Source: Oscillibacter sp. (lineage in GTDB: Bacteria; Bacillota; Clostridia; Oscillospirales; Oscillospiraceae). From it: a DNA stretch of 64,000 nt. Both the position numbers and the translations under genes were made by a program. The stretch is from the NCBI RefSeq assembly GCF_032018205.1, contig NZ_DALZOY010000001.1:72618-136617 (forward strand). The letters run 5' to 3'. Numbering within the stretch: the first letter of the stretch is position 1; the number at the start of each line of letters is the position of its first letter. Below, piece by piece: positions 13,493-47,193 of this stretch. The notes below the pieces were generated by a model. The model was not told the origin of the DNA, did no database searches, and was given only the letters and a program-made list of their open reading frames with translations.

Positions 13493-14518
13493 ATGCCGAT
13501 GTCGGAGGTGCTTTCACAAAGCCAAATCGACGCGCTACTCAGCGCGGCGCGAAGCGGGGATAAGATTGAAACCGAGGAAGACACGTCGAAGGATAGAAAA
13601 TACAGGAAGTACGACTTTCGTAGCCCCCGCAAATTTACCAAGGACCGGCTGAAAATGCTGGACAGCATTTTTGAAAATTATTCGAGAAATCTGAATTCCC
13701 GCATCAACGGCCTGATGCACACAAGCTGCGAAATCAACGTGGAATCCGCCGAGGAGCAGCGATATTATGAGTTTTCCAACGCCCTGATTGAGGGCGATGT
13801 TCTGGCGCTGGCCTATATCAAATACGGGGAGGTGCTGGAAGATACTCCGGCGCTGCTGCACATCAGCAAGCCGCTGCTGCTGAGCATGATCGACAGGATG
13901 ATGGGCGGCGAGGGCGAGGTGGACGATGAGTTGGACCCGGAGTACACGTTTACCGATCTGGAGCTGAAGATTCTGGAGGGCCTGAGCGAGTATTTTGTGG
14001 AGAACCTGGGCGAGAGCTGGCAGAATTACATTCAGCTTGAGTTTCAGTACGGGCGCGTGGAGCCAAATCCCACGATGATTCAACCTCTGGGACTGGATGA
14101 AATCGTGGTCATCATGGATTTGACGGCAAAATTTCCAAACTGCGACGGGCATATAAGCGTGTGCCTTCCCGGCATGGTGCTGACCAATGTTTTCAGTGAA
14201 ATCAGCCGCCTTAACACGGCCCATAAAAGTCAGGACGAGGCGGCGGGGAAAGAGATTTTCGAGTCTCTGAAAACCACGGAGATCGATCTGATTGCGGAAA
14301 TCTGCCGCACAAAGCTCCAGCTTAGCGACATCTACCACCTGAACGTGGGAGACGTGATTGATTTGAAGCGGCCCAAAAACTCGGCGGTTCATATCAACAT
14401 CGGCGGGCGGCGCTGGTTTGACGGCGTGATGGGAATACACAACAAAAACATGGCGGTCAAAATAGGAAGGACCTATTACGGGCCGGAGGGAAGGAACGTC
14501 GAACAGGATGGCAGATAA
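13493..14518 (+). CDS. fliM: Flagellar motor switch protein FliM
   Basis: N-terminal CheY-P docking peptide SEVLSQSQIDALLS (alternative ATG at 13499). FliM middle domain and C-terminal SpoA-like domain (LNVGDVIDLKRP...). Confidence 0.95.
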   Translation: MPMSEVLSQSQIDALLSAARSGDKIETEEDTSKDRKYRKYDFRSPRKFTKDRLKMLDSIFENYSRNLNSRINGLMHTSCEINVESAEEQRYYEFSNALIEGDVLALAYIKYGEVLEDTPALLHISKPLLLSMIDRMMGGEGEVDDELDPEYTFTDLELKILEGLSEYFVENLGESWQNYIQLEFQYGRVEPNPTMIQPLGLDEIVVIMDLTAKFPNCDGHISVCLPGMVLTNVFSEISRLNTAHKSQDEAAGKEIFESLKTTEIDLIAEICRTKLQLSDIYHLNVGDVIDLKRPKNSAVHINIGGRRWFDGVMGIHNKNMAVKIGRTYYGPEGRNVEQDGR

Positions 14519-21856: not shown

Positions 21857-21924
21857 TTGAATTTTGAAGTCTGGCGCGGCGCATGCGGCTTTATAAGAGC
21901 TTTGCGAAAGGAGGGGGCAGAAGC

Positions 21925-22782
21925 GTGAGTGATACGGCTGTTTTAAACAATCACACGGAAGAAGCTCTCTCCAAAACGCTTCTGACGGAGCGGGAGCTGG
22001 AGGCCCTGCCCACCGACGAGCTGCTGAGCCTTTATAAGCGCACGGGAGCGGAGGCGTACAAGTGGCCTCTGGTGCTGCGGTACGAGGGGCTGATTAAAAG
22101 CATCGCCCTGCAAATCTGTGGCGTGTACAACGGCTTTGCCCAAGTGGACGACATTGTGAACGAGGGCATTCTCACATTGATGAACTCTGTGGATAAGTTC
22201 GACCCCGAAAAGGGCGCGAGATTTGAAACCTATGTGTCCAAGCGCATCCGGGGTATGATTATCGACCTTGCCCGCCAACAGGACTGGCTGCCCCGCAGCG
22301 TGCGCCGCCGTGCACGGGAGATTGATCAGGCGGTGAGCAGTCTCAATAACCACTTGGGCCGCTTTCCCACCGACGAGGAGATTGCCGGGCACATGGGCCT
22401 GAGCGTGGAGAAGTATCGGGAAGATGCGGCAGCGGCCGCCTTTTGCAACATTGTTTCGCTGGAGGCGCTGTTTGAACGCCGCAGCGAGGGGGACACGGGT
22501 GTTTCCATTCCGGCGGCGGAAGACCTCTCGCCGGAGGACAGCGTGCAGCAAAAGGAGCTGCGGGAGCTGCTGGGCGACGGAATCCGGGCGCTGCGAAAAA
22601 ATGAGCAAATGGTGCTGTCCCTGTATTACGAGCGGGGACTGAATATGCGGAACATCGCGCAAGCCATGGACATCAGCGAGCCCCGCGTGTCGCAGATTCA
22701 CAGCCGGGCTATTCAAAAATTACGCGTGTATCTGGGGCCCTATATGGGGCAAAAGCCGGAGCGCGGCGAGAAAAGAGAGTGA
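21925..22782 (+). CDS. fliA: Flagellar sigma factor, FliA/SigD (sigma-28) family
   Basis: ORF 21883..22782. The GTG at 21925 follows an AAGGAGGGGG RBS. Region 2 (DDIVNEGILTLMNSVDKFDPEKGARFETYVSKRIRGMIID) and region 4 (LNMRNIAQAMDISEPRVSQIHSRAIQKLR) are present. Confidence 0.9.
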   Translation: MSDTAVLNNHTEEALSKTLLTERELEALPTDELLSLYKRTGAEAYKWPLVLRYEGLIKSIALQICGVYNGFAQVDDIVNEGILTLMNSVDKFDPEKGARFETYVSKRIRGMIIDLARQQDWLPRSVRRRAREIDQAVSSLNNHLGRFPTDEEIAGHMGLSVEKYREDAAAAAFCNIVSLEALFERRSEGDTGVSIPAAEDLSPEDSVQQKELRELLGDGIRALRKNEQMVLSLYYERGLNMRNIAQAMDISEPRVSQIHSRAIQKLRVYLGPYMGQKPERGEKRE

Positions 22783-26502: not shown

Positions 26503-26517
26503 AAGCGATGAGTGGGA

Positions 26518-27786
26518 ATGAGAAAGGACCGAAATAAGAACAAATACATCGTCCGCCAGCCCATCCGTAACGCTCAGAAGCAGTCCATCGGCTACGAGAT
26601 TTTGTACCACGGAGAAAATCAGGCATTCTGTGGGCTGATGAGTGACAAGGAATTTGCCGCTGCGGACACGGTGTATAACTTCCTGATTCAGAACACCGAC
26701 AAGCTTTTAAAGGGTTCGTTTTATTTTATGACCTTTACGGCCACGCTGCTGCTGAAAAAAACGCCGGACCTGTTCGATCGGTCGGAGCTGGTGATTCAGA
26801 TTGACGACAGCGTGATCATTCATCCGGCGGCGCTGGGCGCTGTGCATGAATATGCAGCCAAGGGCTATCGAATCGCGGTGAACGAGTTTCAGTTTCTGCC
26901 CCGGTATCTCGCATTGCTTGACACAATCGACTATCTAAAGCTGAATTTTGCCACCACCAGCGAAGAGAAGCTTAAAAATATCATCGAAATTGCCCACAGC
27001 CTGAAAAAACTGTGCATTGCCACCAATGTGGACACGGAGGAGCTGTATGCCAAGGCGGAAGAACTGGGCGTGGACGCCATGGAGGGCACCCGCGTGGCGG
27101 AGAAGCTGGCCACCAAAATTCACAACAGCGGCTATCTGCAAAGCAACTTCTTCCGCCTGATTGTGGCCATGAGCCGGGAGGAGCCTGAGATTGGCGAGGT
27201 GGAGGAACTGGTTTCCGTGGACGCCACCTTGAGCTATGCGCTGCTGCGGCTGGCCAACTCCTGTTATTTTGCCCGCCGCAACCGGGCCACCACCGTGCGT
27301 CAGGCCATCATGACAGTGGGGCTGAACCAGCTTCGCCAGTGGGTCTATCTTCTCAGCGCCAACAACGCAGAGAACGAGATGGATGCCGACGCGGAGGAAT
27401 TTTTGAAGCTGTCCCTCCTGCGGGGCACTTTTTGCAGCAAGCTGATGAAGTATGCCACAGGCATGGCCATTTCCACATCCGATGCATACCTTATGGGTAT
27501 GTTCTCCACGCTGCACTATCTGATTGACGCGCCAATGGAGGAAATATTGGAGGAGATTCCGGTTCCGGAGGCTGTCAAGGCCGCGCTGCTGCACCGCGAG
27601 GGCAGAGCAGGTCAGCTTTTTGAGCTGGCACTATGCTATGAGCGGGCGGACTGGAACGGGGTTGCCGCCGCCACAGAAGCGCTGGGCATCCCGGCGAACC
27701 TGCTCACGGGGACTTATTTTGCCTGTGTGGACGACGTGAACAGCATCTGGACGCAGGTGACCAACCCTCGCCCGGACGACGGCTGA
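26518..27786 (+). CDS. Degenerate EAL domain + HDOD domain signalling protein
   Basis: EAL-like N-terminal half (YIVRQPI...GYEILYH). Most catalytic positions are substituted (see findings). The HDOD-like C-terminal half reads VSVDATLSYALLRLANSCYFARRNRATTVRQAIMTVGLNQLRQWV. Last gene of the plus-strand operon. Confidence 0.8.
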   Translation: MRKDRNKNKYIVRQPIRNAQKQSIGYEILYHGENQAFCGLMSDKEFAAADTVYNFLIQNTDKLLKGSFYFMTFTATLLLKKTPDLFDRSELVIQIDDSVIIHPAALGAVHEYAAKGYRIAVNEFQFLPRYLALLDTIDYLKLNFATTSEEKLKNIIEIAHSLKKLCIATNVDTEELYAKAEELGVDAMEGTRVAEKLATKIHNSGYLQSNFFRLIVAMSREEPEIGEVEELVSVDATLSYALLRLANSCYFARRNRATTVRQAIMTVGLNQLRQWVYLLSANNAENEMDADAEEFLKLSLLRGTFCSKLMKYATGMAISTSDAYLMGMFSTLHYLIDAPMEEILEEIPVPEAVKAALLHREGRAGQLFELALCYERADWNGVAAATEALGIPANLLTGTYFACVDDVNSIWTQVTNPRPDDG

Positions 27787-34321: not shown

Positions 34322-35533
34322 TTACGAATCGCTGCGGAAGGCCCAGTCCGTGTCTCTGATGCACTGCATGTAGATGTCCATTACCTCATAGGCATCCACG
34401 TCCAGCGCAGGCGGCTCCATCGGCGTTCTTTGCTCATAGGAAACGGCGTATTCCAGATACGTCTTTAAAGGGCCTGAGTCTTCACCCAGCAGGACCTTTT
34501 TGGTTTCCGCCGGGAGGTGAACCTCCCCCAGCAGGTCCGCCATGGACCGACCCAGAATGAGGTCCATCAGACTGAACATCCCCGTGAGAAAGCCGGAAGT
34601 TTTCTTACGACTGTGGGGCGAGTGCTCCATCAGCCGCTCCATGAAAATTCCGCGAAGATATGCCTCGCGCACCGTCTCGTCCGAGCAGGTGGTGTTGGAC
34701 TCCCGGGCCAGCAGCAGAACCACCCAGTGGTACAGTTCGTCAATCCCCAGATAGGTCACGGCCCGCTCAATCACTTCGAGAGAGTTGCCCCGATAGTATT
34801 GCAGCGTCCTCACTTTTTTCAGGAGGCGAAAGGTTAGCGCTGCGTCGGAGCGAATCATCTCCGAGCAGTAGCGCAAATCTACGTCGGTCCGGTTCAGCTC
34901 CCGCAAAAGGCGCGTATAGGTGGCGGAGTTAATATTCGCCGTCTCCTTGCGCAGATTCGTGGGCCGCTGAAAGAAAAACCCCTGAAACTTGCTGTAACCC
35001 TGACGCATAGCCCGCTCATAGGTTTCCCGGTCTTCTACTTTTTCAGCCAACAAAGCCATGCGACCACGACGATATTTTCGCGCAATTTCTTCCTGCTTTT
35101 CTTCACTGGTAGCCAAAAAGTCCACCTTCAGCACGTCAATCAGCGGAAGAATGGGGTCAAAGATCGGGTCGCCGGTGTAGTCGTCCAGCGCCAGACGATA
35201 ACCGCGGCTTTTCAGATCCTTCAAACGCCTGATCAGTTTGTCCGTCACGTGAATGCTCTCCAGCAGCTCTATCGTAATTTTCCGGGGGTCCGTCAGCAAC
35301 ACAAAGTCACTCATCACCAGCGACTCCGTAAAATTGACGTATGCACCCCGCCCATCGGTCAGATTGTTCAGACCAAAGGCCATCAATGCGTCGGACAGAA
35401 GGATGCGGGTGGCCCGGTCCCCATCCGCAAACGAGGCTCGGTCCTCTCCGTCGCCCGCCCGGTAAAGCAGCTCGTAGCCCTCTACCCGCAGATTGCGGTC
35501 GAAAATGGCCTGCCGGGCAATGTATCTCTGCAT
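34322..35533 (-). CDS. EAL domain (catalytic residues intact) + HDOD domain protein, putative c-di-GMP phosphodiesterase
   Basis: YIARQAIFD, GYELLYR, AYVNFT, ITIELLES, LALDDYTGD, LKVD, AEKVE and FQGFFF match EAL catalytic positions in order. The C-terminal half is HDOD-like (MIRSDAALTFRLLKKVRTLQYYRGNSLEVIERAVTYLGIDELYHWV). Confidence 0.85.
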   Translation of the reverse strand: MQRYIARQAIFDRNLRVEGYELLYRAGDGEDRASFADGDRATRILLSDALMAFGLNNLTDGRGAYVNFTESLVMSDFVLLTDPRKITIELLESIHVTDKLIRRLKDLKSRGYRLALDDYTGDPIFDPILPLIDVLKVDFLATSEEKQEEIARKYRRGRMALLAEKVEDRETYERAMRQGYSKFQGFFFQRPTNLRKETANINSATYTRLLRELNRTDVDLRYCSEMIRSDAALTFRLLKKVRTLQYYRGNSLEVIERAVTYLGIDELYHWVVLLLARESNTTCSDETVREAYLRGIFMERLMEHSPHSRKKTSGFLTGMFSLMDLILGRSMADLLGEVHLPAETKKVLLGEDSGPLKTYLEYAVSYEQRTPMEPPALDVDAYEVMDIYMQCIRDTDWAFRSDS

Positions 35534-35559: not shown

Positions 35560-37566
35560 TTAGGCGCGGGGTTCCTCCATCTGGATACTCACGCGGTCCC
35601 CGTCTGCCAGCACGCGCATAAATGCGCTGCTCTCCCCGTTGACCCGCAGTGTCACAGGTCGATCCAGATGCTCAAAATCAAGACCCGCATGCTCCAGCAA
35701 ATCCATTAAATAGTAGGGCGCGTTCTTCGGTTTAGCCGGAAGCTTCAGCGGGGCTCCGTTTAGAAAAAACAGGCGGGGAGGAAGCAATTCCTCAAAAGGC
35801 TGGGGGGCGGACACGCGCTCTGCCTCCGGCTTTTCGGCGGAAGAACTCGCTGTCGGGGAACTATCCGCTGAGCCGTCGGCAGGCAGGCATTCCTGGGCTG
35901 CGGAAGCGTCCTCGCCCACGGCGTGAGAAGAAGCCGCTTCTTTGTTCGTCCCTTCTAATACCGTCGCCTTTACGGGGACGATGGCGTTGGTGACCACGGC
36001 GTCTCCCGGACGCAACTCATAGTCGGGGCCCACGGGCGCTCCATTCACAAGGCAAACGGCTGCGGCGGACTCACCGCCCAGCGCCTCGGCAATGGTTCGC
36101 CGACCCGCTTTTCCTGAGCGGGCGGGGGTAAATTCAATAGAGTCCGCCGCCTGAATCACTGTGGAGGGCGGAAGCTCCGTTCCGTTGATGCGCAGAGAGG
36201 ACGGCTCCGCAGGCTCGCCCCGGTACAGGGTCCGCTGTCCGTCAATGGTAACGGCAAGTGAGGAACCGGTCCGGCCGATCAGGTCGGCGTAGTTGTAGCC
36301 GTTCATCTGCAAAACGTCCAGCGCGGTTAAAGCGCCGCTGCGGAAAAGCTTGGCAGGATGACCGTTGAGAGAAACGCGATAGCTGTCTGAAATCAAGCCT
36401 AGACCAGCGGAGACGGCGATGCCCAAAGGCGTGGTATATTCCGGGTCGTTCAATTCTTCGGTGTCGGAAAAGGCGCTCATTTTAAAGTTAGACCCGGCCA
36501 CGCTTACCCGCCGGGGATCCATTTCCAGCGCGGAGGCCACCGCCTGCGGCAGCCCCTCCAGCTTGCTGCCCCCGCCCGCCAGAAAGACCGCCGAGGGCGC
36601 GCCGCCGTTAATTTCCCGGATGCGGCGGGCCAGCTCGTCCGCAAGCTGGCCTTCAGCCGGGATAATCACCTCTTTCACAGCAGAGGAGGGAAGCTCCTGC
36701 TCAAAACCCAAAATGTCGGTAAAGCGCAGAGTTTCTCGACAGGCCGCTTCTGATTTCAGGCGCTCCGCCGTGGAAAAGTCGGTGAGAAAGGCCCGCATAA
36801 TGGCTTCAGTAATCTCGTCGCCCGCCACGGTGGCCATGGTATAGCCCACTACGCTGCCGTCCCGGCAGGCGGCAATGTCCGAGGTACCCGCCCCGATGTC
36901 CGCCATCACCAGATTCAAAAGCCGCAACTCCGGCGGAATGGCGGCGTTAATGGCGGCAATGGGCTCCAGCGTCAGGCTGACCACCTCCAGGTCCGCCGTC
37001 TGCATGGCGGAATACAAGCTGTCCACCACCTCGGAGGGCAGGAAGGTTGCCACTACTTCACATTCCAGCTTTTGTCCGTTATGGCCTTTCAGAATGGAAA
37101 GGGGATAGCTGTCCACAAGATACTGGGAGACAGTGTATCCCACCAGATAAAACCGGCCCAGCCGCTGGTCGTTCTTGTTCAGGTTGGACTCGGCGGCGGA
37201 AACAGCCCCCGCCTCAAGCTGACCGATGAGGTCCTCTCCGATGCGGCGAACCTCCGGCAGCTCCAGCTCAAAGTGGCCCGCCTCCGTGTGCAAAGCCCGT
37301 CCGGCAGCGGCAATGCACACCCGCGTCAGCTTGCAGTCCAGCCGGGCTTCCAGCCGGGCAGTTACCTCGGCGGCAACCTTTCCCACCTGAGCAATGTCCT
37401 CAATTTGACCGTCCATCATGGCGCGCTTGCTGTGCTCCAGTTTTTCCACGGCCAGAATGTGCACCCGCTCGCCCTCTGCTCGGCCTGCCATGCCGATGAT
37501 GCTTCTGGTGCCGATGTCCAGCGCGAAAATCATGTCCCGACTCTGCTGCTCGCGTACTTTTTCCAC
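35560..37566 (-). CDS. FtsA-like actin-fold ATPase with ~270-aa C-terminal repeat extension
   Basis: GTG start behind an AGAGGAGTGAG RBS. The actin-fold phosphate motifs are FALDIGTRSIIG and LVMADIGAGTSDIAACRDG...ATVAGDEITEAI. FLAGGGSKLEGL is also present. The C-terminal part contains three LNG...(I/V)NG...D.(I/V) modules. Confidence 0.8.
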   Translation of the reverse strand: MEKVREQQSRDMIFALDIGTRSIIGMAGRAEGERVHILAVEKLEHSKRAMMDGQIEDIAQVGKVAAEVTARLEARLDCKLTRVCIAAAGRALHTEAGHFELELPEVRRIGEDLIGQLEAGAVSAAESNLNKNDQRLGRFYLVGYTVSQYLVDSYPLSILKGHNGQKLECEVVATFLPSEVVDSLYSAMQTADLEVVSLTLEPIAAINAAIPPELRLLNLVMADIGAGTSDIAACRDGSVVGYTMATVAGDEITEAIMRAFLTDFSTAERLKSEAACRETLRFTDILGFEQELPSSAVKEVIIPAEGQLADELARRIREINGGAPSAVFLAGGGSKLEGLPQAVASALEMDPRRVSVAGSNFKMSAFSDTEELNDPEYTTPLGIAVSAGLGLISDSYRVSLNGHPAKLFRSGALTALDVLQMNGYNYADLIGRTGSSLAVTIDGQRTLYRGEPAEPSSLRINGTELPPSTVIQAADSIEFTPARSGKAGRRTIAEALGGESAAAVCLVNGAPVGPDYELRPGDAVVTNAIVPVKATVLEGTNKEAASSHAVGEDASAAQECLPADGSADSSPTASSSAEKPEAERVSAPQPFEELLPPRLFFLNGAPLKLPAKPKNAPYYLMDLLEHAGLDFEHLDRPVTLRVNGESSAFMRVLADGDRVSIQMEEPRA

Positions 37567-38612: not shown

Positions 38613-39548
38613 ATGATACAAAAATTTGGAAGGAGGCGGCGGCCGGTGAAGCGCGGTTCTCGCTTAAAAAAACTGCTTGCCGTCGCTGTGCTTGCCATCG
38701 TGTGCATCGGGACGGCGGAACTGGCCGTATGCCGGGTGGCAGACCCGGTGCTGTACGAGCGGATCATGACTCCTGTGCGGCGGACAGCCTCCTCCGCATG
38801 GGCCATGGTGTCCGATGGCGCCCGGACGGTATACAGGGTGGCGTCCGACGGCGCTTCCAGCGTGTGGGACAAAGCGGCCTCCGCTGTCACCGGGGTGCTG
38901 CGCAAGGACGGGGAGGAGCTGGAAAGCCAGGCGGTTCTGGAGCCGGACGAAGAGCCGATCGCCTTGGCGGACCCTACTGTTACCGCGCTGGAGCAGAGGG
39001 AGACGGGCGAGGTTCTCACCGGCGGAAACCGGGAGGTTTTTTATTACAATCAGACCGACGAGACTTGGGCGGACCAGCCCTATGGGCGAGACACTCTGGG
39101 CCGGTATGGCTGCGGTCCCACCTGCCTGTCCATGGCTGTTTCCAGCCTGACCGACCGGGCGGTGGACCCCGGGGAGATGGCGCAGTGGGCTGCTGAAAAC
39201 GGGCATTGGGCGCGGCGCAGCGGGTCCTATCTCTCCATTGTAAATGGTGTGGCTGCGGCCTATGGGCTGGAAGTGGAGTCCCTGCCGGACTGCGACTCGG
39301 AGCGATTGCGGCTGGAGCTGGCCGCGGGGAAGATGGCCGTGGCCCTGATGACCAAGGGCCATTTCACCAACGGTGGGCATTTCATCCTCCTGCGCGGGGC
39401 CACGCTGGACGGCGGCATTCTGGTGGCGGACCCCAGCAGCCGGGAGAGAAGCCTTGCCGTGTGGGACCCGCAGGTAATTTTGGATGAGCTGTCTAAAAGT
39501 CGGAGCAGCGGCGCGCCGCTGTGGCTTTTATCTCCGGCGGATTCATAA
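38613..39548 (+). CDS. Membrane-anchored papain-like cysteine peptidase (peptidase C39-like fold)
   Basis: The likely real start is the GTG at 38646, behind GGAAGGAGG. N-terminal TM LLAVAVLAIVCIG. Catalytic-type motifs are YGCGPTCLSM (Cys), GGHFILLRG (His) and LVADPSS (Asp). Confidence 0.7.
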   Translation: MIQKFGRRRRPVKRGSRLKKLLAVAVLAIVCIGTAELAVCRVADPVLYERIMTPVRRTASSAWAMVSDGARTVYRVASDGASSVWDKAASAVTGVLRKDGEELESQAVLEPDEEPIALADPTVTALEQRETGEVLTGGNREVFYYNQTDETWADQPYGRDTLGRYGCGPTCLSMAVSSLTDRAVDPGEMAQWAAENGHWARRSGSYLSIVNGVAAAYGLEVESLPDCDSERLRLELAAGKMAVALMTKGHFTNGGHFILLRGATLDGGILVADPSSRERSLAVWDPQVILDELSKSRSSGAPLWLLSPADS

Positions 39549-40456: not shown

Positions 40457-43054
40457 TCAGCCGCCCATCATGCTTGAAATCATGGAGCTTTGAGAATTCA
40501 TGGAGCTGGTCAGCGTTTCCAGTCGGGTGAACATTCTGGTATAGTAATCCACCTGATCGGAAAGCTTGTCCTGCCATCTTGTGACCTGATCGTCATACTC
40601 GTCAATCTGATCCTGTATGTTGTTTGACAGCAGCGACAAAGGCGAGTAGACCGAGCCGGCCTTCTGCACCAGAATGCCTTTTGTCGCGCCGGTGGTGGAG
40701 GCGTAGTCGGAGATGACCTTGCTGACGGTGACCATCAGTCCGCCGCTTCCGGTGGTGGAGGTAAACGCATCACGCACGCTGTCGGGGTCGCTGCTCAGCG
40801 CGTCTCGCAGCGCGTCCTCGTCTATCTGAAGGGAAGTAACGCCGTCGGAGTAGGTGGTGGAGATTCCCATTTTCGAAAGCGTGCTACTGGAAGAGCCTCC
40901 CGGAGAGATGGCGGAAATCAGCTTGCTGTACAGGCTGGTAAGATCGCTGTCGCCAAACAAAATACCCTGCTTCGCCTTCTCCTCGTATTTTTCTATGGCG
41001 GAGTCGGTCATTTCGCTTTTGTCGTCGTCGGTAAGCGGCTCATAGCGACTTTTGTCGCTCTTGTAATTGGGAAGGGAGGAGTAAGCATCGTGGACCGATT
41101 TTAAGATTTCGTTCAGTTCGTCCACCATGCCGGTAATGGTGTCCACCAGCGTGTCCGCGTCTGAAACGGAGGTAAACGTGACCGCTTCGGGGCTGTCTTG
41201 CAGCGTGCCGAGAACGGTGTTCCCGTTGGTGTCCAACGTGTCGGCGGAATAGGTTCCGAATGTTCCCTTTAGGGTGACGGACAGACCGTCCACGCTGAAG
41301 GTATTGTCCGAGCGGGTAATGGAGCCCATCGGCACGCCGTTGACCTCCATGCTGAACACCGCATCCTGCCCCGCCTTGTACGCATCCGCGGGGGCCGTCT
41401 GAATGCCAGCGGCGACCTGCCCGTCGGAGTCGTTCACCGCGCCGAACAGAAGGGCGGCCAGGTTGAGCTTTCCTTTGTTCTCCCCCTCCGAAATGGTGTC
41501 GTTAATAACAATTTGGCTGGCCGCGCCGGTTTCTCTGGAAGCAATCTGAATCTGGTTGGTGGTTTTGGAGAAGCTGGCGCTCAGGCCCACGGATTCGGAA
41601 TTGATGGCAGAAAACACGGCGTCCAGAGAAGAGTCCCGGGTAAAGGTCAGCTTTTTGCCGCTGATTTCCAGCTCATAACCGTAAAGCTGCTTGCCGTCGG
41701 ACCCCAACCGATAGCCGTCCTTGTCGGTTTTGTTGCCGTCGGAGTCCACATAGGTGCCGTCGCTTTTTTTGGTGATCTTACTGGAGTCGGAGCGAAGCAC
41801 CGTTCCCTCGATTCCGCCCAGTGTTTCGGGGTCGCTGCCCACGGCCGGTTTCGGCTCCAACAAAGAGCCAAGCGTCTTGCCGGTATCCAGATAGCTGGAG
41901 GTAAAGCTGCCACTAAGGCCCAAGGCCGTGCCCACGGCGGAAGTGGCGGAAATGGTGATGGTAGAGCCCTTCTGTCCTGTGAATTGCAGCTTGCCGCCAT
42001 TCATCTTCACCTTCACGTTGGAGCCAAACGCATCCTTCACGGCGCTTTGCAGGCCGTCTACAAAAGCTTCGGTCGGTTTCGAATTGCTGGAATCGTATGT
42101 AGGCAGCGTGATGGTTTTGGTCTTGCCGTCCACCGACATGGAAATCGTCTTTCCGGAAAGGTATTTGCCCGCAGTGCCGCTTTTGTCCACCAGATCAATC
42201 AGGTTTCCGTTGTCTGAGGGGATGGTGAGGAAGGATTCCTTTTTGCTGGGATCAATATTCAGGGTTTCCTTCAGCTTACCGGTGGCGCCGGTCACGGTGA
42301 CGGTGTTTCCAGCACTCTGATTGTCAATGAAGCTCACCTTTCCGTCGTCGCCCAAAGAAGCTTTCACCATGGTCAGGGCGGGGACGCTCTCTCCCTTGGA
42401 ATCCGTCACCGTGGTGGAGGCCAGCTTCACGTTGATGGCCCGCACAAAGTCGTCCGCCGAGGCATACGTCTCCAAATCGCCAAAGCTCAGGTCGATGGAA
42501 CGGCTGCTGCCGTAGCTCAGGGTCAGCGTGCCGCTGACCTTGCTCAAATCCATTGGATTGGATAGATTTAGGGTTTTGCCCAAAATATTGGCAATGCCGT
42601 CCGTGCCGGTGATGCCGGTCATGTTGGAATTCTTAAACAAATCCGCCGCGGAAGCGCTGTAGGTAGACTTGGTGGCCAACTGCTTCACGCCCGAAATCTG
42701 CACGTTGCTGGAGGTTTTGCCGGAGGCGGAAACCTTGGACGCGTTGGCTCCGTTGGTGGAGGTGATCACGGCTTTATTGAAATAGCTGGGGCTGAGCAGG
42801 TTTGTGGACGAGTTGTAGGAGGTGTATTTCTGGGCAAATTTAATCATGGGGCTGGAAATTTCGCGGATGCCCTCCTGCTGCCATGTCAGCTTGGTTTGCT
42901 TTTGCTGAAGGGACGAAATTTTAAGATTATAGCCGCTGACGGCGTTTTCAATCATCGACTCCGTATCCATTCCCGTGGCGAGGCCGGACAAAACGTTTCG
43001 ATTGCCGTAGATGCTGCTGGAATTGCTGCTGGTGACTCCGCTGACGGATGCCAT
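40457..43054 (-). CDS. fliD: Flagellar filament cap protein FliD (unusually long, ~865 aa)
   Basis: ORF 40457..43183. The ATG at 43054 follows an AAGGAAGGAGCG RBS. N terminus SIYGNRNVLSGLATGMDTESMIENAVSGYNLKISSLQQKQTKL. C terminus DEYDDQVTRWQDKLSDQVDYYTRMFTRLETLTSSMNSQSSMISSMMGG. Confidence 0.9.
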   Translation of the reverse strand: MASVSGVTSSNSSSIYGNRNVLSGLATGMDTESMIENAVSGYNLKISSLQQKQTKLTWQQEGIREISSPMIKFAQKYTSYNSSTNLLSPSYFNKAVITSTNGANASKVSASGKTSSNVQISGVKQLATKSTYSASAADLFKNSNMTGITGTDGIANILGKTLNLSNPMDLSKVSGTLTLSYGSSRSIDLSFGDLETYASADDFVRAINVKLASTTVTDSKGESVPALTMVKASLGDDGKVSFIDNQSAGNTVTVTGATGKLKETLNIDPSKKESFLTIPSDNGNLIDLVDKSGTAGKYLSGKTISMSVDGKTKTITLPTYDSSNSKPTEAFVDGLQSAVKDAFGSNVKVKMNGGKLQFTGQKGSTITISATSAVGTALGLSGSFTSSYLDTGKTLGSLLEPKPAVGSDPETLGGIEGTVLRSDSSKITKKSDGTYVDSDGNKTDKDGYRLGSDGKQLYGYELEISGKKLTFTRDSSLDAVFSAINSESVGLSASFSKTTNQIQIASRETGAASQIVINDTISEGENKGKLNLAALLFGAVNDSDGQVAAGIQTAPADAYKAGQDAVFSMEVNGVPMGSITRSDNTFSVDGLSVTLKGTFGTYSADTLDTNGNTVLGTLQDSPEAVTFTSVSDADTLVDTITGMVDELNEILKSVHDAYSSLPNYKSDKSRYEPLTDDDKSEMTDSAIEKYEEKAKQGILFGDSDLTSLYSKLISAISPGGSSSSTLSKMGISTTYSDGVTSLQIDEDALRDALSSDPDSVRDAFTSTTGSGGLMVTVSKVISDYASTTGATKGILVQKAGSVYSPLSLLSNNIQDQIDEYDDQVTRWQDKLSDQVDYYTRMFTRLETLTSSMNSQSSMISSMMGG

Positions 43055-43143
43055 ACTGATCGCTCCTTCCTTGATCCGCGCCTGCGCGGGGCTTCCCCGG
43101 GGCGGCGGCTTAAAAGAAAATTTAATTCTATCTCTATACTTTT

Positions 43144-43170
43144 CTATCGACATATAGTATAGTAAAGTTA
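43144..43170 (-). promoter_or_regulatory. Sigma-28-like promoter candidate for fliD-fliS
   Basis: The minus strand reads TAAC-N15-GTCGATAG, against the Firmicute SigD consensus TAAA-N15-GCCGATAT. It lies about 90 nt upstream of the fliD ATG. Confidence 0.4.
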
Positions 43171-43197
43171 AGAGTTTCGACAAAGTTTTTTAATCAA

Positions 43198-43992
43198 ATG
43201 GGAGGTTTCGGTTTGGCAACAATCATGACGGTCACAAATCAGAAGGGCGGCGTGGGAAAGACCACCACTGCCGCCGCGCTGCTGTATGCGCTGTATGAGC
43301 GCGGACAGCGCGTTCTTGGCGTGGACCTGGATCCGCAGGGCAGTTTGAGCTTCAGCCTCGGACTGGATACGGAAAACTGCGCCACGGTCTACGATTTGTT
43401 TAAAGACCGGGTTACGGTGGACGAGGCCATCACCAATTCCCACGGAATCGACCTCCTTCCCGCCAACATTCTTTTGTCGGCGGCGGAGCTGGAATTTAAC
43501 CGCACCGGACGCGAGTTTATGCTGCGCAATAAGCTGATGGGCGTGGCAGAGCGGTATGACTATGTCATCATCGACACGCCGCCCGCGCTGAACGTGCTGA
43601 CGGTGAACGCGTATGTGGCTTCGGACACGCTGGTGATTCCCATGGTGCCGGAAATCCTGAGTCTTTTGGGCGTGGCCCAGATCAAGGAAACCATTGACAC
43701 TGTGCAGAGTTGTTATAACCCCAAGCTTAGAGTTCTGGGGATTCTGCTGAATAAATATAACGCCCGCCTGACTCTGAACCGCGAAGTCAGCGAGATGGCC
43801 GACCAGATTGCCAAGCAGTTAAAAACCAGCGTATTTAAATCCGTAATTCGTTCCAGTATCGCCGTGGCGGAGGCTCCCGCCCACGGCGAAAGTATTCTCA
43901 GCTACGCGCCCAATTCAAAGCCCGCCGACGATTTCCAGCATCTCACCTCGGAAATTACTTCTTTGCTGCAAGAGCGGCAAGGGACCCGGTGA
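43198..43992 (+). CDS. ParA/Soj-family (deviant Walker A) ATPase, no ParB adjacent
   Basis: The start may be the TTG at 43213 or the ATG at 43225, after GGGAGG. Deviant Walker A NQKGGVGKTT. Also YVIIDTPPAL and a Soj-like C terminus IRSSIAVAEAPAHGESILSYAPNSKPADDF. Confidence 0.85.
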   Translation: MGGFGLATIMTVTNQKGGVGKTTTAAALLYALYERGQRVLGVDLDPQGSLSFSLGLDTENCATVYDLFKDRVTVDEAITNSHGIDLLPANILLSAAELEFNRTGREFMLRNKLMGVAERYDYVIIDTPPALNVLTVNAYVASDTLVIPMVPEILSLLGVAQIKETIDTVQSCYNPKLRVLGILLNKYNARLTLNREVSEMADQIAKQLKTSVFKSVIRSSIAVAEAPAHGESILSYAPNSKPADDFQHLTSEITSLLQERQGTR

Positions 43993-44020
43993 AACGGTCT
44001 GCCAGCAGGAGGAATGCATC

Positions 44021-44737
44021 ATGCCCGCCAACAAAAAGTCTACCAATAAAACGGCTCACGTGCTGAATGTCATCACGGCAGGCCGGGCAACGGCTGAGGA
44101 AGTAGCCCCCGCTTCGCTGGCTTCTCCGCCTGCGGCAACGGTCGAGGCCGTTACCCCGCCGCCTGTCATCGCGCCGCCGCCGGTCATTGCGCCGGTTGTT
44201 CCCATGGTGGAGGTGGAGCACGCCCCCGAGGAGCTTTCCAATCAGATTCGGGAGGCCCTGCGGGAGGAGGTGGAGCGGGCGGAGAGCGACACGTTTTCTG
44301 TCCTTCAGCCGGAGGTTATTAAGACGGGAGATTACGAGTTGCCGTCCAGTTCGTCTTCGCCCACCGCGTCTTCGGCTGCTGTGCCGCCTATTTCTTCCAT
44401 CGGACGGCGCACACCCGTGAGGTCCGCACAGCCAATGCTTGCCGGAGAGCCTCAGGCCCCGTCAGGTACGGGAGATGAGAGTGAGTACGTCAACGTCATG
44501 CAGGCGCTGGTGCGGGAAAAAGTGCCTAAATATATCAAGCTTCTGGGCGTTTGCCCGTGCAGCCGGTGTCAGGCGGATGTGGAGGCGTTGGCGCTGAGCC
44601 ATCTGGAGCCAAAGTACATTGTACTGCAAAAATGCCAGAGGTTTCCTTACTCCGTGTATGAAAACCACTATAACGCCGCAGTCACATCCCAGATCATCTC
44701 CGCCTGCCGCGTGGTGATGGAAAATCCCAGACATTGA
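44021..44737 (+). CDS. ComFB-domain protein with Lys-rich N-terminus and Pro/Ala-rich disordered linker
   Basis: AGGAGG RBS. The C-terminal ~85 aa read YVNVMQALVREKVPKYIKLLGVCPCSRCQADVEALALSHLEPKYIV...SQIISACRVVMENPRH. This matches the ComFB fold family (CxCxxC, LxPxY and a terminal PRH). The N terminus is MPANKKSTNKTAH. A tandem PPVIAPPPVIAP follows. Confidence 0.8.
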   Translation: MPANKKSTNKTAHVLNVITAGRATAEEVAPASLASPPAATVEAVTPPPVIAPPPVIAPVVPMVEVEHAPEELSNQIREALREEVERAESDTFSVLQPEVIKTGDYELPSSSSSPTASSAAVPPISSIGRRTPVRSAQPMLAGEPQAPSGTGDESEYVNVMQALVREKVPKYIKLLGVCPCSRCQADVEALALSHLEPKYIVLQKCQRFPYSVYENHYNAAVTSQIISACRVVMENPRH

Positions 44738-44748
44738 CCGTTTTTTAG

Positions 44749-44784
44749 AAAGACCGCCGCCCGGCTGGGTGGCGGTCTTTTTTT
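44749..44784 (+). terminator. Rho-independent terminator after the ParA-ComFB pair
   Basis: AAAGACCGCC / GGCGGTCTTT stem followed by TTTT. Confidence 0.75.
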
Positions 44785-44996
44785 ACGGGAGCGGTGGGCA
44801 GCACCAATCTGTCTGCCTATGGTGTTGCCCTGCTTTTTTGGGAGCGCTGGGCTTGCGGACGGTTGTCCGGAAATATCGGAGCTGCTTCTGCGGTTTCATC
44901 TGAAAACAATCTGTCAATATGCGGCAAAGCTCCCCTCTGTTCGACAACAGAGGGGAACCTTTTATTGAAATATTACAAATTGTATTGAAACAAGCT

Positions 44997-45926
44997 TTAA
45001 AATGACACAATTTCCTGTCGGGGTTTCTTGCCGTCCGCCACCGAGACGATGTGCATCACCGGACCGGGACCCTTGTAGGCGGGGTGCTCCTCCACGTCCA
45101 TTTTGGCCGTAATTTCCATCCAGTCGTGATTTTTGAAGCGGTCAAGTCCCTCGCCGCGGGCAATCAGGCCCAAGAAGGTCACGTCCTTCTCACAGCACAC
45201 CATGGCAAATCGGCCCGGACAGTCTATACCGGGATACTGGGAGGAGTGGCACATTACCACCATCATGTGGACCAGCTTGCCCCGATACCGGTCGGGGTGG
45301 TCCATCACGTCCACATACCACACGCCGAAGTCCTCGTCGGGGATGTCGATGACCTCCTGCGTCATGTCAAAGGGGCACTCGTCGCCGGTGAGATAGTCCT
45401 CGCTGGTGCCGTCTGCATTCTCCAGATAGATGTCCGCACGGCGGTTCACCATCCGCAGGTTGCGCTTGCGCAGGCTTTCCCGCAGCTCCGGGGTGCAGCG
45501 GTTGAAGACCAGCATGTCCGCGCCTGTAATCTTCTCCATCATAAGCTGCCCCATGTTTTTGGCATAGGCTTCAAAGGTGGAGGCCTGCACCATGCACATA
45601 ATCTGATACAGCACCCAGTTGGCTGGAAGCACGTCCCGGTAAAGCCGCTCAAGCTGCCACATGCCGTTGTATTCAATCAGCACCTGACGAGGCTTGTACT
45701 TTTTTTCGCACTCCTTCAAAAATGAGCAGGTCAGCGCTTTCTCACTCTCTATGGTCACCACCGTGACATTGGAAAGAGCGGCCTTGTCGTATTCCTCTTC
45801 GCCCTCCTCGCAGCAGAGAAGAAGGGTCTTGTCCTCCTTGGCGAAGCCGTCCTGTAAAATGCCGTTGATAAAATTGGTTTTGCCGCCGTCCAGAAAGCCG
45901 GCGATGAGATAAACGGGTATATCCAT
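44997..45926 (-). CDS. CobW/HypB/UreG-superfamily GTP-binding protein (second, divergent copy)
   Basis: P-loop-like IAGFLDGGKTNFI. Cys-rich C-terminal part (MVVMCHSSQYPGIDCPGRFAMVCCEKD). Tandem with the COG0523-type gene. Confidence 0.7.
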   Translation of the reverse strand: MDIPVYLIAGFLDGGKTNFINGILQDGFAKEDKTLLLCCEEGEEEYDKAALSNVTVVTIESEKALTCSFLKECEKKYKPRQVLIEYNGMWQLERLYRDVLPANWVLYQIMCMVQASTFEAYAKNMGQLMMEKITGADMLVFNRCTPELRESLRKRNLRMVNRRADIYLENADGTSEDYLTGDECPFDMTQEVIDIPDEDFGVWYVDVMDHPDRYRGKLVHMMVVMCHSSQYPGIDCPGRFAMVCCEKDVTFLGLIARGEGLDRFKNHDWMEITAKMDVEEHPAYKGPGPVMHIVSVADGKKPRQEIVSF

Positions 45927-45961: not shown

Positions 45962-47116
45962 TTATAGGCCAAACAGCACTTTGAGCTTCGCTTCGTTCAG
46001 CTCCGCACCGATGACACACAGGCGGCCCGTGTAGTCGGGGGCGCCCCGCCGGACCTCCGCCTCCTCGGGCACGAAGTCAAAGTGAAGCCAGCCGCCATCC
46101 GCCGCCGGAAGAATGCCCTTGGCCCGCAGAACCTTGCCAAAGTCGCCGGAGTCCAGCTTTTCCAGAATGGCGCGAATGCTCATTTCTGTGAAGACCTTGG
46201 GTGTCTCCGCACCCCAACTGGTAAACACCTCGTCCGCGTGATGGTGGTGGCAGGAACAATCGGGGTCACTGCACTCGTGCGCATGGTCATGATGGTGTTC
46301 ATGCTCGTGATCGTGCTCATGGTGATGATCGTGCTCATGCTCATGGTCATGATGATGCTCGTGGTGGTGATCATGGCAGGAGCAGTCGGGGTCGCCGCAC
46401 TCGCATTCATGGTCATGATGGTGTTCATGGTCATGGTCGTGATCGTGATGATGCTCGTGCTCATGGGCATCCGCCGTGTGTTCGGCGCGGATGCGCTCCA
46501 GCAGTTCGTCCGCCAGAGATACTTTTTCAATGGCAGAGAGAATGGTTTTGCCGTCCAATTGGTCCCAAGGAGTGGTGAGAATGGCGGCCTGAGGGTTCAG
46601 CTCCCGCAGCATGGCCACGGCGGCATCCAGCTTTTCAGCCGACAGCTTCTGTGTCCGGGAGAGAATAATGGTTCCTGCGGATTCCACCTGATTGTTGTAG
46701 AACTCGCCAAAGTTTTTCATATAGACCTTCACCTTGGATGCGTCCGCCACCGTGACAAAGCTGTTCAGCTCCATGTCGGCGCTCTTGGACACCGTGTCCT
46801 GCACGGCGGCAATCACGTCGCTGAGCTTGCCCACACCGGAGGGCTCGATCAAAATGCGGTCAGGGTGAAACTGCCGCTGCACGTCCTGAAGCGCTTGGCT
46901 GAAGTCGCCCACCAGAGAGCAGCAGATGCAGCCGGAGGACATCTCGGAAATCTGCACGCCGGATTCCTTTAAAAAGCCGCCGTCAATGCTGATTTCGCCG
47001 AATTCGTTCTCAATGAGCACCAGCTTTTCGTCCTGATAGGCCTCGGCCAGCAGCTTTTTGATAAGCGTTGTTTTTCCGGCGCCGAGAAAGCCGGAAATAA
47101 TGTCAATTTTTGTCAT
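45962..47116 (-). CDS. COG0523/CobW-family metallochaperone GTPase with long His-rich insert
   Basis: ORF 45962..47170 with an ATG at 47116. P-loop GFLGAGKTTL, metal motif GCICCS and a His/Asp/Glu-rich tract of roughly 75 aa. The C-terminal domain is CobW_C-like. Confidence 0.9.
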   Translation of the reverse strand: MTKIDIISGFLGAGKTTLIKKLLAEAYQDEKLVLIENEFGEISIDGGFLKESGVQISEMSSGCICCSLVGDFSQALQDVQRQFHPDRILIEPSGVGKLSDVIAAVQDTVSKSADMELNSFVTVADASKVKVYMKNFGEFYNNQVESAGTIILSRTQKLSAEKLDAAVAMLRELNPQAAILTTPWDQLDGKTILSAIEKVSLADELLERIRAEHTADAHEHEHHHDHDHDHEHHHDHECECGDPDCSCHDHHHEHHHDHEHEHDHHHEHDHEHEHHHDHAHECSDPDCSCHHHHADEVFTSWGAETPKVFTEMSIRAILEKLDSGDFGKVLRAKGILPAADGGWLHFDFVPEEAEVRRGAPDYTGRLCVIGAELNEAKLKVLFGL

Positions 47117-47165
47117 GGAATCAAGTCCTTCGCTTTTAAATTTGGGGAGCTGACTAATACCTCGT

Positions 47166-47193
47166 ATCATACCATTTTTTCTTAAAATTGCAA
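47166..47193 (-). promoter_or_regulatory. Candidate sigma-A promoter for the CobW pair
   Basis: The minus strand reads TTGCAA-N16-TATGAT with a TGg extended -10. The -35 element lies inside the AT-rich palindrome AAAATTGCAATGTTT. Confidence 0.4.

Follow-up and report, generated by a model that had tools for sequence, protein, structure and literature searches.

What does a ParA-type ATPase do when its gene lies beside the flagellar cap gene fliD and its operon partner encodes a ComFB-domain protein? This question is raised by positions 43,198 to 44,737 of a 64,000-nucleotide (nt) stretch of Oscillibacter sp. (contig NZ_DALZOY010000001.1), the whole of which is referred to as the window. The initial annotation, made from the letters alone, had proposed that the ComFB protein is the adaptor of this ParA and couples a cyclic-dinucleotide signal to the spatial organisation of flagella or chemotaxis arrays. 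We report that the pairing is real and more than a coincidence, that it occurs widely among flagellated gut Clostridia and is apparently undescribed, and we infer a mechanism by which it might act. Specifically, the ParA gene and the gene for a partner of 238 amino acids (aa), which consists of a basic N-terminal peptide (N-peptide), a linker with a conserved helix and a C-terminal ComFB domain, form an operon that is strictly conserved and stands among genes for flagella and for cyclic di-GMP (c-di-GMP) signalling. Moreover, N-peptide, ParA and ComFB domain are an obligate triad of a large family, since a genome scan, a metagenome scan keyed on the N-peptide and a profile search agree.

The parA-comFB operon and its conservation

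The operon has the following features.

43213..43992, plus strand: ParA gene, 259 aa, TTG start; the listed open reading frame (ORF) from ATG 43198 is 264 aa
44021..44737, plus strand: gene for the ComFB-domain partner, 238 aa, with a Shine-Dalgarno sequence, AGGAGG, at 44007-44012
44750..44785, plus strand: intrinsic terminator, which closes the two-gene operon

Both ORFs were found at the coordinates given in the initial annotation. Its choice of ATG 43198 as the start of ParA did not hold up, the conservation of start codons making TTG 43213 likelier. A Shine-Dalgarno sequence, GGGAGG, is present at 43200-43205 and TTG 43213 begins 7 nt after it; in an alignment of eight Oscillibacter intergenic regions this start is kept as TTG or GTG, whereas ATG 43198 is not kept. 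Because of this conservation among relatives, and because the orthologue in Oscillibacter valericigenes is annotated at 259 aa, the actual start is probably TTG 43213. The partner ORF begins 28 nt past the ParA stop with a Shine-Dalgarno sequence of its own. The terminator claimed after the second gene was confirmed by its folding energy and by shuffling (16-bp stem with a U-tract behind it, -34.3 kcal/mol, z = -6.6; 0 of 200 shuffled sequences folded equally well), and a strong terminator was found only behind this second gene of the pair.

Adjacency of the two genes in other genomes, which had been set beforehand as the main refutation test of the proposal, turned out to be conserved. For the genome scan, one genome per GTDB species was used with patterns derived from the partner itself; 161 partner relatives were obtained and the best 80 loci were analysed. 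A ParA orthologue is encoded directly upstream and on the same strand in 79 of the 80, the exception being a contig of 937 bp, and the ParA orthologues are 51-99% identical (99% for ParA at loci L001 and L002). With corrected starts, the gap between ParA and partner is 24.5 nt in the median and no more than 60 nt in 68 of 76 loci; five pairs overlap. The pair is present in the Oscillospiraceae genera Oscillibacter, Lawsonibacter, Flavonifractor, Pygmaiobacter and Evtepia, in Acutalibacter, and in Dorea, Blautia, Faecalicatena and Hominisplanchenecus of the Lachnospiraceae. The association with flagellar loci is borne out, 70 of 78 loci having fliD upstream in divergent orientation. The same arrangement is seen in the complete genome of O. 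valericigenes Sjm18-20 with its independent gene calls, that is, FliD on the minus strand followed by ParA (259 aa) and ComFB (236 aa) on the plus strand, where the ComFB gene is OBV_05890 and the ParA gene lies directly upstream of it.

Since the patterns of the genome scan came from the partner itself, a second scan, of metagenome contigs, was keyed on the back-translated N-peptide NKTAHVLN alone. It gave 119 matches, 77 of them of the N-terminal type (Met, K/R-rich run, motif), the rest being chance matches in unrelated frames. Wherever an N-terminal match had 700 nt or more of sequence before it (73/73), a ParA gene of this clade lies directly upstream, and the ComFB domain stands at the end of 60 of the 66 complete ORFs. 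The six without it appear to be frameshifted or truncated versions of proteins found complete on other contigs and, in one case, an assembly chimera. In the latter (L177, protein start near position 4568), which was considered as an N-peptide protein with a C-terminus other than ComFB, the N-peptide, helix and repeats are followed by a PEPEPE stretch leading into solute-binding sequence resembling the tripartite ATP-independent periplasmic (TRAP) transporter protein DctP, with no ComFB downstream; it was rejected as a probable chimera because the TRAP-like sequence begins straight behind the PEPEPE repeat.

Finally, when 1.84 billion representative proteins were searched exhaustively with a profile, 467 clusters at 50% identity reached E ≤ 1e-30. 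Among the best 150 matches, the strict motif is present in 110 of 141 new representatives at 50% identity, and nearly all the others are one-residue variants, e.g. SKTDHVLNLL and SKTEHVLNLL. A profile of the N-peptide only, run against a set of 5.8 billion proteins, retrieved short fragments of 29-76 aa alone, apparently length-filtered and so uninformative on other architectures.

Partner modules and the putative peptide pocket of ParA

The modules of the partner were read from alignments of 28 (alignment A1) and 78 orthologues, and the 28-sequence alignment was used for an AlphaFold2 (AF2) model.

44021..44077, plus strand: N-terminal basic peptide, aa 1-19, MPANKKSTNKTAHVLNVIT, family core K-T-x-H-V-L-x-L-[LI]
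44198..44287, plus strand: acidic amphipathic helix in the linker, aa ~60-89, VEVEHAPEELSNQIREALREEV, conserved in 78 orthologues
44480..44734, plus strand: ComFB domain, aa 154-238, with C178, C180, C183 and C229; D186 corresponds to D33 of Bacillus subtilis ComFB (BsComFB)

All the sequences on which the initial annotation had built its three-part description of the partner, MPANKKSTNKTAHVLNV and PPVIAPPPVIAP together with CPCSRC, LEPKY and NPRH, are present. The basic N-peptide, the linker and the ComFB domain stood; the linker is, however, ~134 aa rather than ~150 aa, and it is not wholly disordered as it contains a conserved helix. Three modules are thus conserved, separated by Pro/Ala/Glu-rich spacers of variable length, and the orthologues range from ~200 to 580 aa in total. 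About 55% of the partner is of low confidence or disordered in the AF2 model.

Module 1 begins with Met and a short K/R/S-rich run, followed by the consensus [ST][NS]KT[ADE]HVLxL[LI]. K10, T11, A12, H13, V14, L15 and N16 are invariant in alignment A1; across the orthologues no substitution is seen at K10, T11 and V14 and hardly any at H13 and L15. The N-peptide, which apart from the ComFB domain is the best-conserved region of the partner, is unstructured by itself according to AF2 and has an invariant Lys as well as the His amid hydrophobic residues. We propose it as a candidate ParA-binding and ATPase-stimulating motif. Module 2, the linker helix, has the family consensus PPILEVAxxxDxxLSxQIxxALExEL with L72 and L80 invariant and A79 nearly invariant (A1), and AF2 places a helix at 70-89 with a predicted local distance difference test (pLDDT) score of ~70-82. 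A reading of its LSxQIxxAL segment as the FliM N-terminal (FliM-N)/EIDAL motif was discarded, as it is shifted by one residue in register and both motifs co-occur in some orthologues.

The identity of module 3 was checked by hmmscan with a positive outcome (Pfam ComFB PF10719, 2.9e-13, 50.1 bits against a cutoff of 25, residues 157-236). In addition, the sequence matches that of the BsComFB crystal structure 4WAI at 5.9e-5, pLDDT is above 90 for residues 154-236 of the AF2 model, and Foldseek with this model retrieved 4WAI (E 8.8e-5, template modelling score 0.70) and the complex of cyanobacterial CdgR with c-di-GMP, 8HJA (E 4.6e-3). As ligand positions of BsComFB we used D33, N40, R/K41, A36, L37, V47 and Y55 (PMC12448109). 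The following BsComFB residues have retained counterparts among the orthologues.

D33, A36 and Y46: present in all 78
L37: present in 75 of 78
N4: present in all 66 that align there
V47: a hydrophobic residue in 72 of 78
C25, C27 and C30 (Zn-binding; here C178, C180 and C183): kept in 77-78/78

A fourth Cys, C229, is present in 77 of 78 orthologues at a position that differs from that of C88 in BsComFB. Together, the residues of the site make nucleotide binding by this domain plausible, though not assured.

The ATPase matches Pfam AAA_31 (1.9e-50, 171.7 bits against a cutoff of 27) and CbiA (1.6e-28), as the hmmscan suggested for it was meant to establish, and the deviant Walker A motif KGGVGKTT that had been noted is present; the motif with its N-terminal signature lysine, TNQKGGVGKTTT, is invariant among the aligned orthologues. 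The Walker A' motif VDLDPQG and the Walker B motif YVIIDTPP are likewise invariant (22-sequence alignment A4; consensus of the window ParA and 78 orthologues). ParA is ~40% similar to Thermus thermophilus Soj, Myxococcus xanthus ParA (8RAY) and Helicobacter pylori Soj. It ends in DDFQHLTSEITSLLQERQGTR soon after the last core helix and the tails of its orthologues are short and unconserved; judged by eye, neither ParA nor these tails include a C-terminal amphipathic membrane-targeting helix, and the orthologue alignment gives no N-terminal extension. Lacking both the extension and a conserved C-terminal amphipathic helix, it classes as ParA-like and not as MinD- or FlhG-like, and an FlhG-like identity was rejected on the basis of sequence. 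The Arg of NKYNARLTL aligns with that of 'ydgR' in T. thermophilus Soj and is invariant in alignment A4. In B. subtilis Soj, R189 and R218 provide non-specific DNA binding, and we take the NKYNARLTL Arg to be the counterpart of R189.

In M. xanthus ParA a bipartite pocket for the partner peptide has been defined experimentally (PMC12462528), and its residues were transferred to the present clade through the alignment with 8RAY.

Y81: Y in the clade
E82: D in the clade
E117: E in the clade
V116: L in the clade
L150: L in the clade
L152: V in the clade
L155: V in the clade
D110: L instead throughout the clade
G151: N instead throughout the clade
L187: T instead throughout the clade
L192: Y instead throughout the clade

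This pattern suggests that the pocket is mostly retained but re-specified, which is what would be needed of a ParA that ignores the ParB of its host while binding another peptide. The absence of a ParB or parS partner, already claimed for the locus, was confirmed: no ParB-family protein was found by Pfam among the ~55 window ORFs scanned, and no Firmicutes-type parS matched in the 64 kb at up to 3 mismatches. In NCBIfam, ParA scores 116.9 for ParA_partition, below the cutoff of 180.

Flagellar setting, proposed mechanism and rival explanations

The surroundings of the operon include these features.

40457..43054, minus strand: fliD, flagellar cap (Pfam FliD_N, FliD_C), starting at ATG 43054 (MASVSG...); the mechanical ORF extends to TTG 43183
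43113..43191, no strand: fliD-parA intergenic block, ~75 nt, with the inverted repeat CTATAC-N17-GTATAG
43144..43171, minus strand: sigma-28/SigD-like promoter element toward fliD (TTAAC, 15 nt, GTCGATAG), a consensus match only
34322..35533, minus strand: EAL-HDOD protein (Pfam EAL, HDOD), candidate c-di-GMP phosphodiesterase or sensor
26512-27786, plus strand: second EAL-HDOD gene (Pfam EAL, HDOD), inside the che gene block

fliD is divergent from and directly upstream of ParA, as the initial annotation had it. The intergenic block is almost invariant among eight Oscillibacter regions whose proteins are only 47-88% identical, and presumably both divergent promoters lie within it. A G+C-rich palindromic stretch, GGGGCTTCCCCGGGG, is found at 43088-43103, past the promoter block and before the fliD start, where the 5' leader of this gene presumably lies, and is kept in the closest relatives only.

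The left 28 kb of the window is a fla/che block resembling that of B. subtilis, in the order flgC-like rod gene, fliF-G-H-I-J-K, flgD, flgE, motA, motB, fliM, fliY, cheY, fliO, fliP, fliR, flhB, flhA, fliA-type sigma factor, two rod genes, cheC, cheD, cheV and EAL-HDOD. In B. subtilis-type fla operons flhF and flhG are normally situated between flhA and fliA. Here flhA is followed directly by the fliA-type gene (19754-22782), so that both are missing from their usual slot, in agreement with what had been stated for FlhG; no other ParA/MinD protein and no GTPase of the signal recognition particle (SRP) type was detected among the window ORFs scanned. The region between the che block and fliS-fliD holds a flagellin gene, an FtsA/PilM-like gene and the other EAL-HDOD gene; fliS is divergent upstream together with fliD. 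Next to fliD, parA is 21 kb away from flhA, and both genes of the pair lie outside the cheC-cheD-cheV block. On the right side two CobW-type genes are followed by housekeeping genes (alanine symporter, mgtE, radC, uvrB, uvrA and suf). The locus is flagellar and chromosomal and is not near replication-origin genes. O. valericigenes has peritrichous flagella, shows 'oscillatory' motility and has no type IV pilus genes (PMC3558957), which makes a role of the ComFB partner in pili or competence unlikely.

Both EAL-HDOD genes have an architecture that we take to be that of B. subtilis PdeH/YuxH, and the Pfam EAL match covers the C-terminal half of the domain only. An EAL-HDOD homologue is encoded within 8 kb in 32 of the 80 loci, and directly downstream of comFB a single convergent gene family is found in 24 (e.g. 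L006, L009 and L018), which by resemblance to the window protein reads as EAL-HDOD-like.

In 13 of the 80 orthologues (loci L013, L016, L017, L019, L022, L024, L025, L026, L029, L033, L034, L035 and L036) modules 2 and 3 are separated by a spacer that includes 1-6 tandem repeats, each ~34 aa long and with GKMSQEDIEKMLAG in it, in L017 at residues ~283-466; the carriers are Oscillospiraceae and Lawsonibacter metagenome-assembled genomes. GKMSQEDIEKMLAG matches the N-terminus of the window FliM, VLSQSQIDALLSA (13493-13550), position for position, and the window's own partner has no FliM-like repeat. This class of FliM N-terminal peptide is bound by phosphorylated CheY (CheY-P) and, in other bacteria, by FlhG, as Schuhmacher et al. 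(2015) reportedly found. FlhG-FliM binding is also covered in a review (PMC11407121). Partners that bear the repeats could be multivalent binders of CheY-P.

Among the other neighbours, the CobW/G3E-family GTPase genes (44997-45926 and 45962-47170, both on the minus strand) are convergent with the operon and are kept as neighbours only in the closest relatives, L001-L005. The product of the first includes a DUF1980_C domain, that of the second a long insert rich in His, Asp, Glu and Cys (HEHHHDHDHDHEHHH) of a kind typical for zinc metallochaperones, and no tie of the two to the Zn-binding ComFB domain is evident. In the flagellar region, 35560-37566 (minus strand) encodes an FtsA/PilM/MreB-like actin-fold protein of 668 aa with a weak ThiS/ubiquitin-like C-terminus; it is present in 10 of the 80 loci, and its O. 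valericigenes orthologue (663 aa) is encoded beside a gene for a methyl-accepting chemotaxis protein (MCP; L201 1-1647). A Peptidase_C39_2-like gene (38613-39548, plus strand) lies on the opposite strand between a gene for an ATP-binding cassette ATPase and a fliS-proximal ORF of 134 aa and occurs in O. valericigenes as well (L201 4622-5503); the minus-strand ORF that overlaps it (38664-39380) is probably spurious.

How might the two proteins work? We suggest that they are a ParA and its dedicated partner, and that this pair is part of the flagellar gene set in Clostridia with peritrichous flagella. The Soj-like ParA would dimerise when bound to ATP and would probably sit on the nucleoid. The partner would form a dimer through its Zn-binding ComFB domain, as a result of which two N-peptides (KTxHVLxLL) would be displayed on long, flexible Pro/Ala linkers and presented to the ParA-ATP dimer, whose ATPase they would stimulate. 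The ComFB domain may sense c-di-GMP, possibly c-di-AMP, and/or hold a flagellar or chemotaxis target, and ParA would distribute, tether or sequester this effector, or the motility component that it holds, along the nucleoid, such that flagellar or chemotactic output is tuned in response to the second messenger. Peptide-ParA binding, nucleoid binding by ParA, nucleotide sensing by ComFB and the identity of the cargo are all steps that we infer. Joint action of the two proteins by way of the N-peptide appears likely to us, and to the complete chain we would give an even chance. The adaptor role assigned to the ComFB protein in the initial annotation is supported in part, namely by the adjacency, by a nearly invariant N-peptide that always comes with ParA and by a pocket that is mostly kept. 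A broader version would make the pair a previously unrecognised class of ParA positioning system whose cargo adaptor is a receptor for cyclic dinucleotides: in peritrichous gut Clostridia without FlhF/FlhG, a nucleoid-bound ParA would space or hold flagellar or chemotaxis components under c-di-GMP switching, the adaptor carrying up to six FliM-like CheY-P-binding motifs in some lineages. This we regard as rather doubtful.

Several observations weigh against the proposed chain. With respect to nucleotide sensing, two BsComFB positions are not kept and a third has no clear counterpart.

N40: T in 32, N in 22, S in 21 and C in 3 of 78 orthologues; S193 in the window
K41: N in 29, H in 15, S in 12, G in 12 and R in 7 of 78 orthologues; H194 in the window
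Y55: counterpart ambiguous; Y213 is invariant

N40 of BsComFB is both a ligand and a dimer residue. The substitutions D33A and N40A strongly impair binding of c-di-GMP by BsComFB and K41A weakens it (PMC12448109, PMC12265714), and some members of the family may not bind nucleotide (PMC12448109). As the N40 and K41 counterparts are replaced and that of Y55 is ambiguous, binding of a cyclic dinucleotide could be weak, altered or lost. In ParA, the arginine of the Soj segment 'PRNVRL' is replaced ('RSSIAV' here), which leaves one of the two DNA-binding Arg residues, and the N-peptide is out of register with the ParB consensus LG(R/K)GLxxLL. Using a stricter sigma-28 regular expression, similar elements facing fliD were recovered in 19 of 79 loci as against 1 of 79 on the parA strand; a sigma-28/SigD-type promoter facing parA was therefore rejected and no parA promoter could be defined, so that it is only the position of the pair that suggests membership of the flagellar regulon. 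Finally, the sequence points to no cargo, be it flagella or chemoreceptor arrays.

These points bear on the rival explanations. The pair might be regulatory in the manner of FleN-FleQ or of cyanobacterial CdgR and its transcription factors, controlling late flagellar genes (fliD, flagellin) or FliA without moving any cargo. The highly conserved 75-nt regulatory block common to the operon and fliD would suit such a role, as would the one DNA-binding Arg that ParA appears to keep, and FleN-FleQ is a precedent: in Pseudomonas, the ParA/MinD-type ATPase FleN has a c-di-GMP receptor, FleQ, as its partner. Partner switching between FlhG and FlrA has been described (PMC11407121), and ComFB-family proteins have been proposed to act via transcription factors (PMC12448109; bioRxiv 10.64898/2026.03.27.713163). 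The partner, however, has no recognisable DNA- or sigma-factor-binding domain, Pfam giving ComFB only, its architecture, a long flexible linker tipped by a peptide, is what ParA cargo adaptors typically show, and BsComFB alters flagellar function and not abundance (PMC12265714); we consider a purely regulatory pair unlikely. A role for ParA as a substitute for FlhG, setting the number or spacing of peritrichous flagella via the C-ring (FliM/FliY) with ComFB as a modulator sensitive to c-di-GMP and/or CheY-P, would account for a locus where fliA follows flhA directly and no further ParA/MinD or SRP-type GTPase was seen among the ORFs scanned, and for the 1-6 FliM-like repeats of the 13 partner orthologues. 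Against this stand the Soj-like character of ParA (AAA_31 and CbiA as best matches, no C-terminal membrane helix, no N-terminal extension), the lack of such a repeat in the window's own partner and the presence of the module in Lachnospiraceae too. The suggestion that ParA replaces FlhG is thus not backed by the sequence, and we judge it distinctly unlikely.

The disordered N-terminus, the share of the partner that is predicted to lack order (~55%) and its position among the late flagellar genes fliD, fliS and flagellin could also fit a secreted or titrated checkpoint factor akin to FlgM, its N-terminus being a type III export signal and ParA unrelated or merely co-transcribed. Export signals are not conserved in sequence, whereas the N-peptide is nearly invariant across Oscillospiraceae and Lachnospiraceae and is coupled to a ParA gene in 73 of 73 cases; moreover, a Zn-bound, folded and dimeric ComFB domain would presumably be a poor export substrate, which makes this explanation very improbable. 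It is scarcely credible that an ordinary DNA-partition ParA, with ParB/parS elsewhere, has the ComFB gene as a chance neighbour. ParA is indeed closest in sequence to chromosomal Soj/ParA proteins, but the adjacency holds in 79 of 80 and 73 of 73 cases over ParA identities down to 51%, the 64 kb contain neither ParB (ORFs scanned) nor parS (up to 3 mismatches), the flagellar locus is chromosomal and away from origin genes, the ParA_partition score stays below its cutoff (116.9 against 180), and the ParB-pocket residues G151, L187, L192 and D110 are replaced clade-wide.

Significance and comparison with known systems

ComFB was recognised as the third widespread family of c-di-GMP receptors only in 2023-2025. 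A ComFB subfamily whose genes invariably accompany one for a ParA ATPase, and whose members bear a putative docking peptide of the ParA type, offers that field a concrete and testable output partner, and for work on ParA/MinD proteins it is a candidate new class of partner, and thus possibly a new cargo, in Gram-positive anaerobes. The pair could exemplify small-molecule input into the ParA cycle; if true, second-messenger control would act directly on a Brownian-ratchet machine of the ParA type. The module is common, with at least 467 clusters at 50% identity and matches in 161 GTDB species, and it is present in abundant flagellated gut genera (Oscillibacter, Lawsonibacter, Flavonifractor, Acutalibacter, Dorea and Blautia). 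Experiments are feasible since the cultured type strain O. valericigenes Sjm18-20 has it.

ComFB/CdgR proteins bind c-di-GMP and some bind c-di-AMP, S. oneidensis ComFB (SoComFB) also affects swimming, and the downstream targets of ComFB proteins are explicitly stated to be unknown (PMC12448109, PMC12265714). When bound to c-di-GMP, BsComFB inhibits flagella at the level of function and not of abundance (PMC12265714). The present partner shares with the BsComFB/CdgR family the Pfam family, the fold, the Zn-Cys triad and counterparts of D33, A36, L37 and Y46, and with BsComFB a flagella-proximal gene position and a precedent in motility control. It differs in its ~150 extra N-terminal residues with conserved peptide and helix, in its obligate ParA neighbour and in not keeping the counterparts of N40 and K41. 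A survey in the Proceedings of the National Academy of Sciences lists comFA/comFC, type IV pili, hfq, GGDEF and flagellar genes as ComFB neighbourhoods, and stand-alone, tandem, REC, CheR, PATAN, GGDEF, PspA-like and immunoglobulin-like forms as architectures (PMC12448109); ParA is absent from both lists. A full-text literature search for ComFB together with ParA gave nothing relevant, which agrees with the statement in the initial annotation that the pairing appeared to be undescribed.

As in ParABS (Soj/Spo0J), a deviant Walker A ATPase is encoded immediately upstream of its partner, the partner N-peptide is unstructured with a basic residue amid hydrophobics, and most of the bipartite pocket is kept. 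Unlike in ParABS, the partner has no ParB/Srx or helix-turn-helix domain and there is no parS, the peptide is KTxHVLxLL instead of LG(R/K)GLxxLL with four pocket positions changed, and the locus is flagellar and not origin-proximal. With FlhG/FleN the pair has in common a ParA/MinD-family ATPase tied to flagellar genes and, in some partners, FliM-N-like motifs. Unlike FlhG, FleN or YlxH, this ParA is Soj-like, has no membrane-targeting C-terminal helix and is encoded beside fliD rather than between flhF and fliA, and the partner, unlike FleQ, is not an enhancer-binding protein.

The systems McdA-McdB (carboxysomes), ParC-ParP and PpfA-TlpT (chemoreceptor arrays) and PomZ-PomXY likewise have a ParA-type ATPase beside an adaptor that does not bind DNA. 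The pair is not itself a ParC-ParP or PpfA-TlpT system, the partner having only ComFB by Pfam and the genes lying outside the cheC-cheD-cheV block. More generally, the cargo-side domain is ComFB and not CheW-like, MCP or McdB-type, and the genes stand beside fliD and not in a che or carboxysome operon. The adaptors of protein-cargo ParA systems are, as here, largely disordered; their N-terminal region engages the ATPase, the other end binds or forms the cargo, and such N-terminal partner regions are a shared feature of ParA/MinD systems (PMC11407121). By analogy, module 1 of the present partner appears to fit these regions in kind, if not in exact sequence. The pair is probably a ParA-partner system whose partner is a subfamily of the ComFB receptors.

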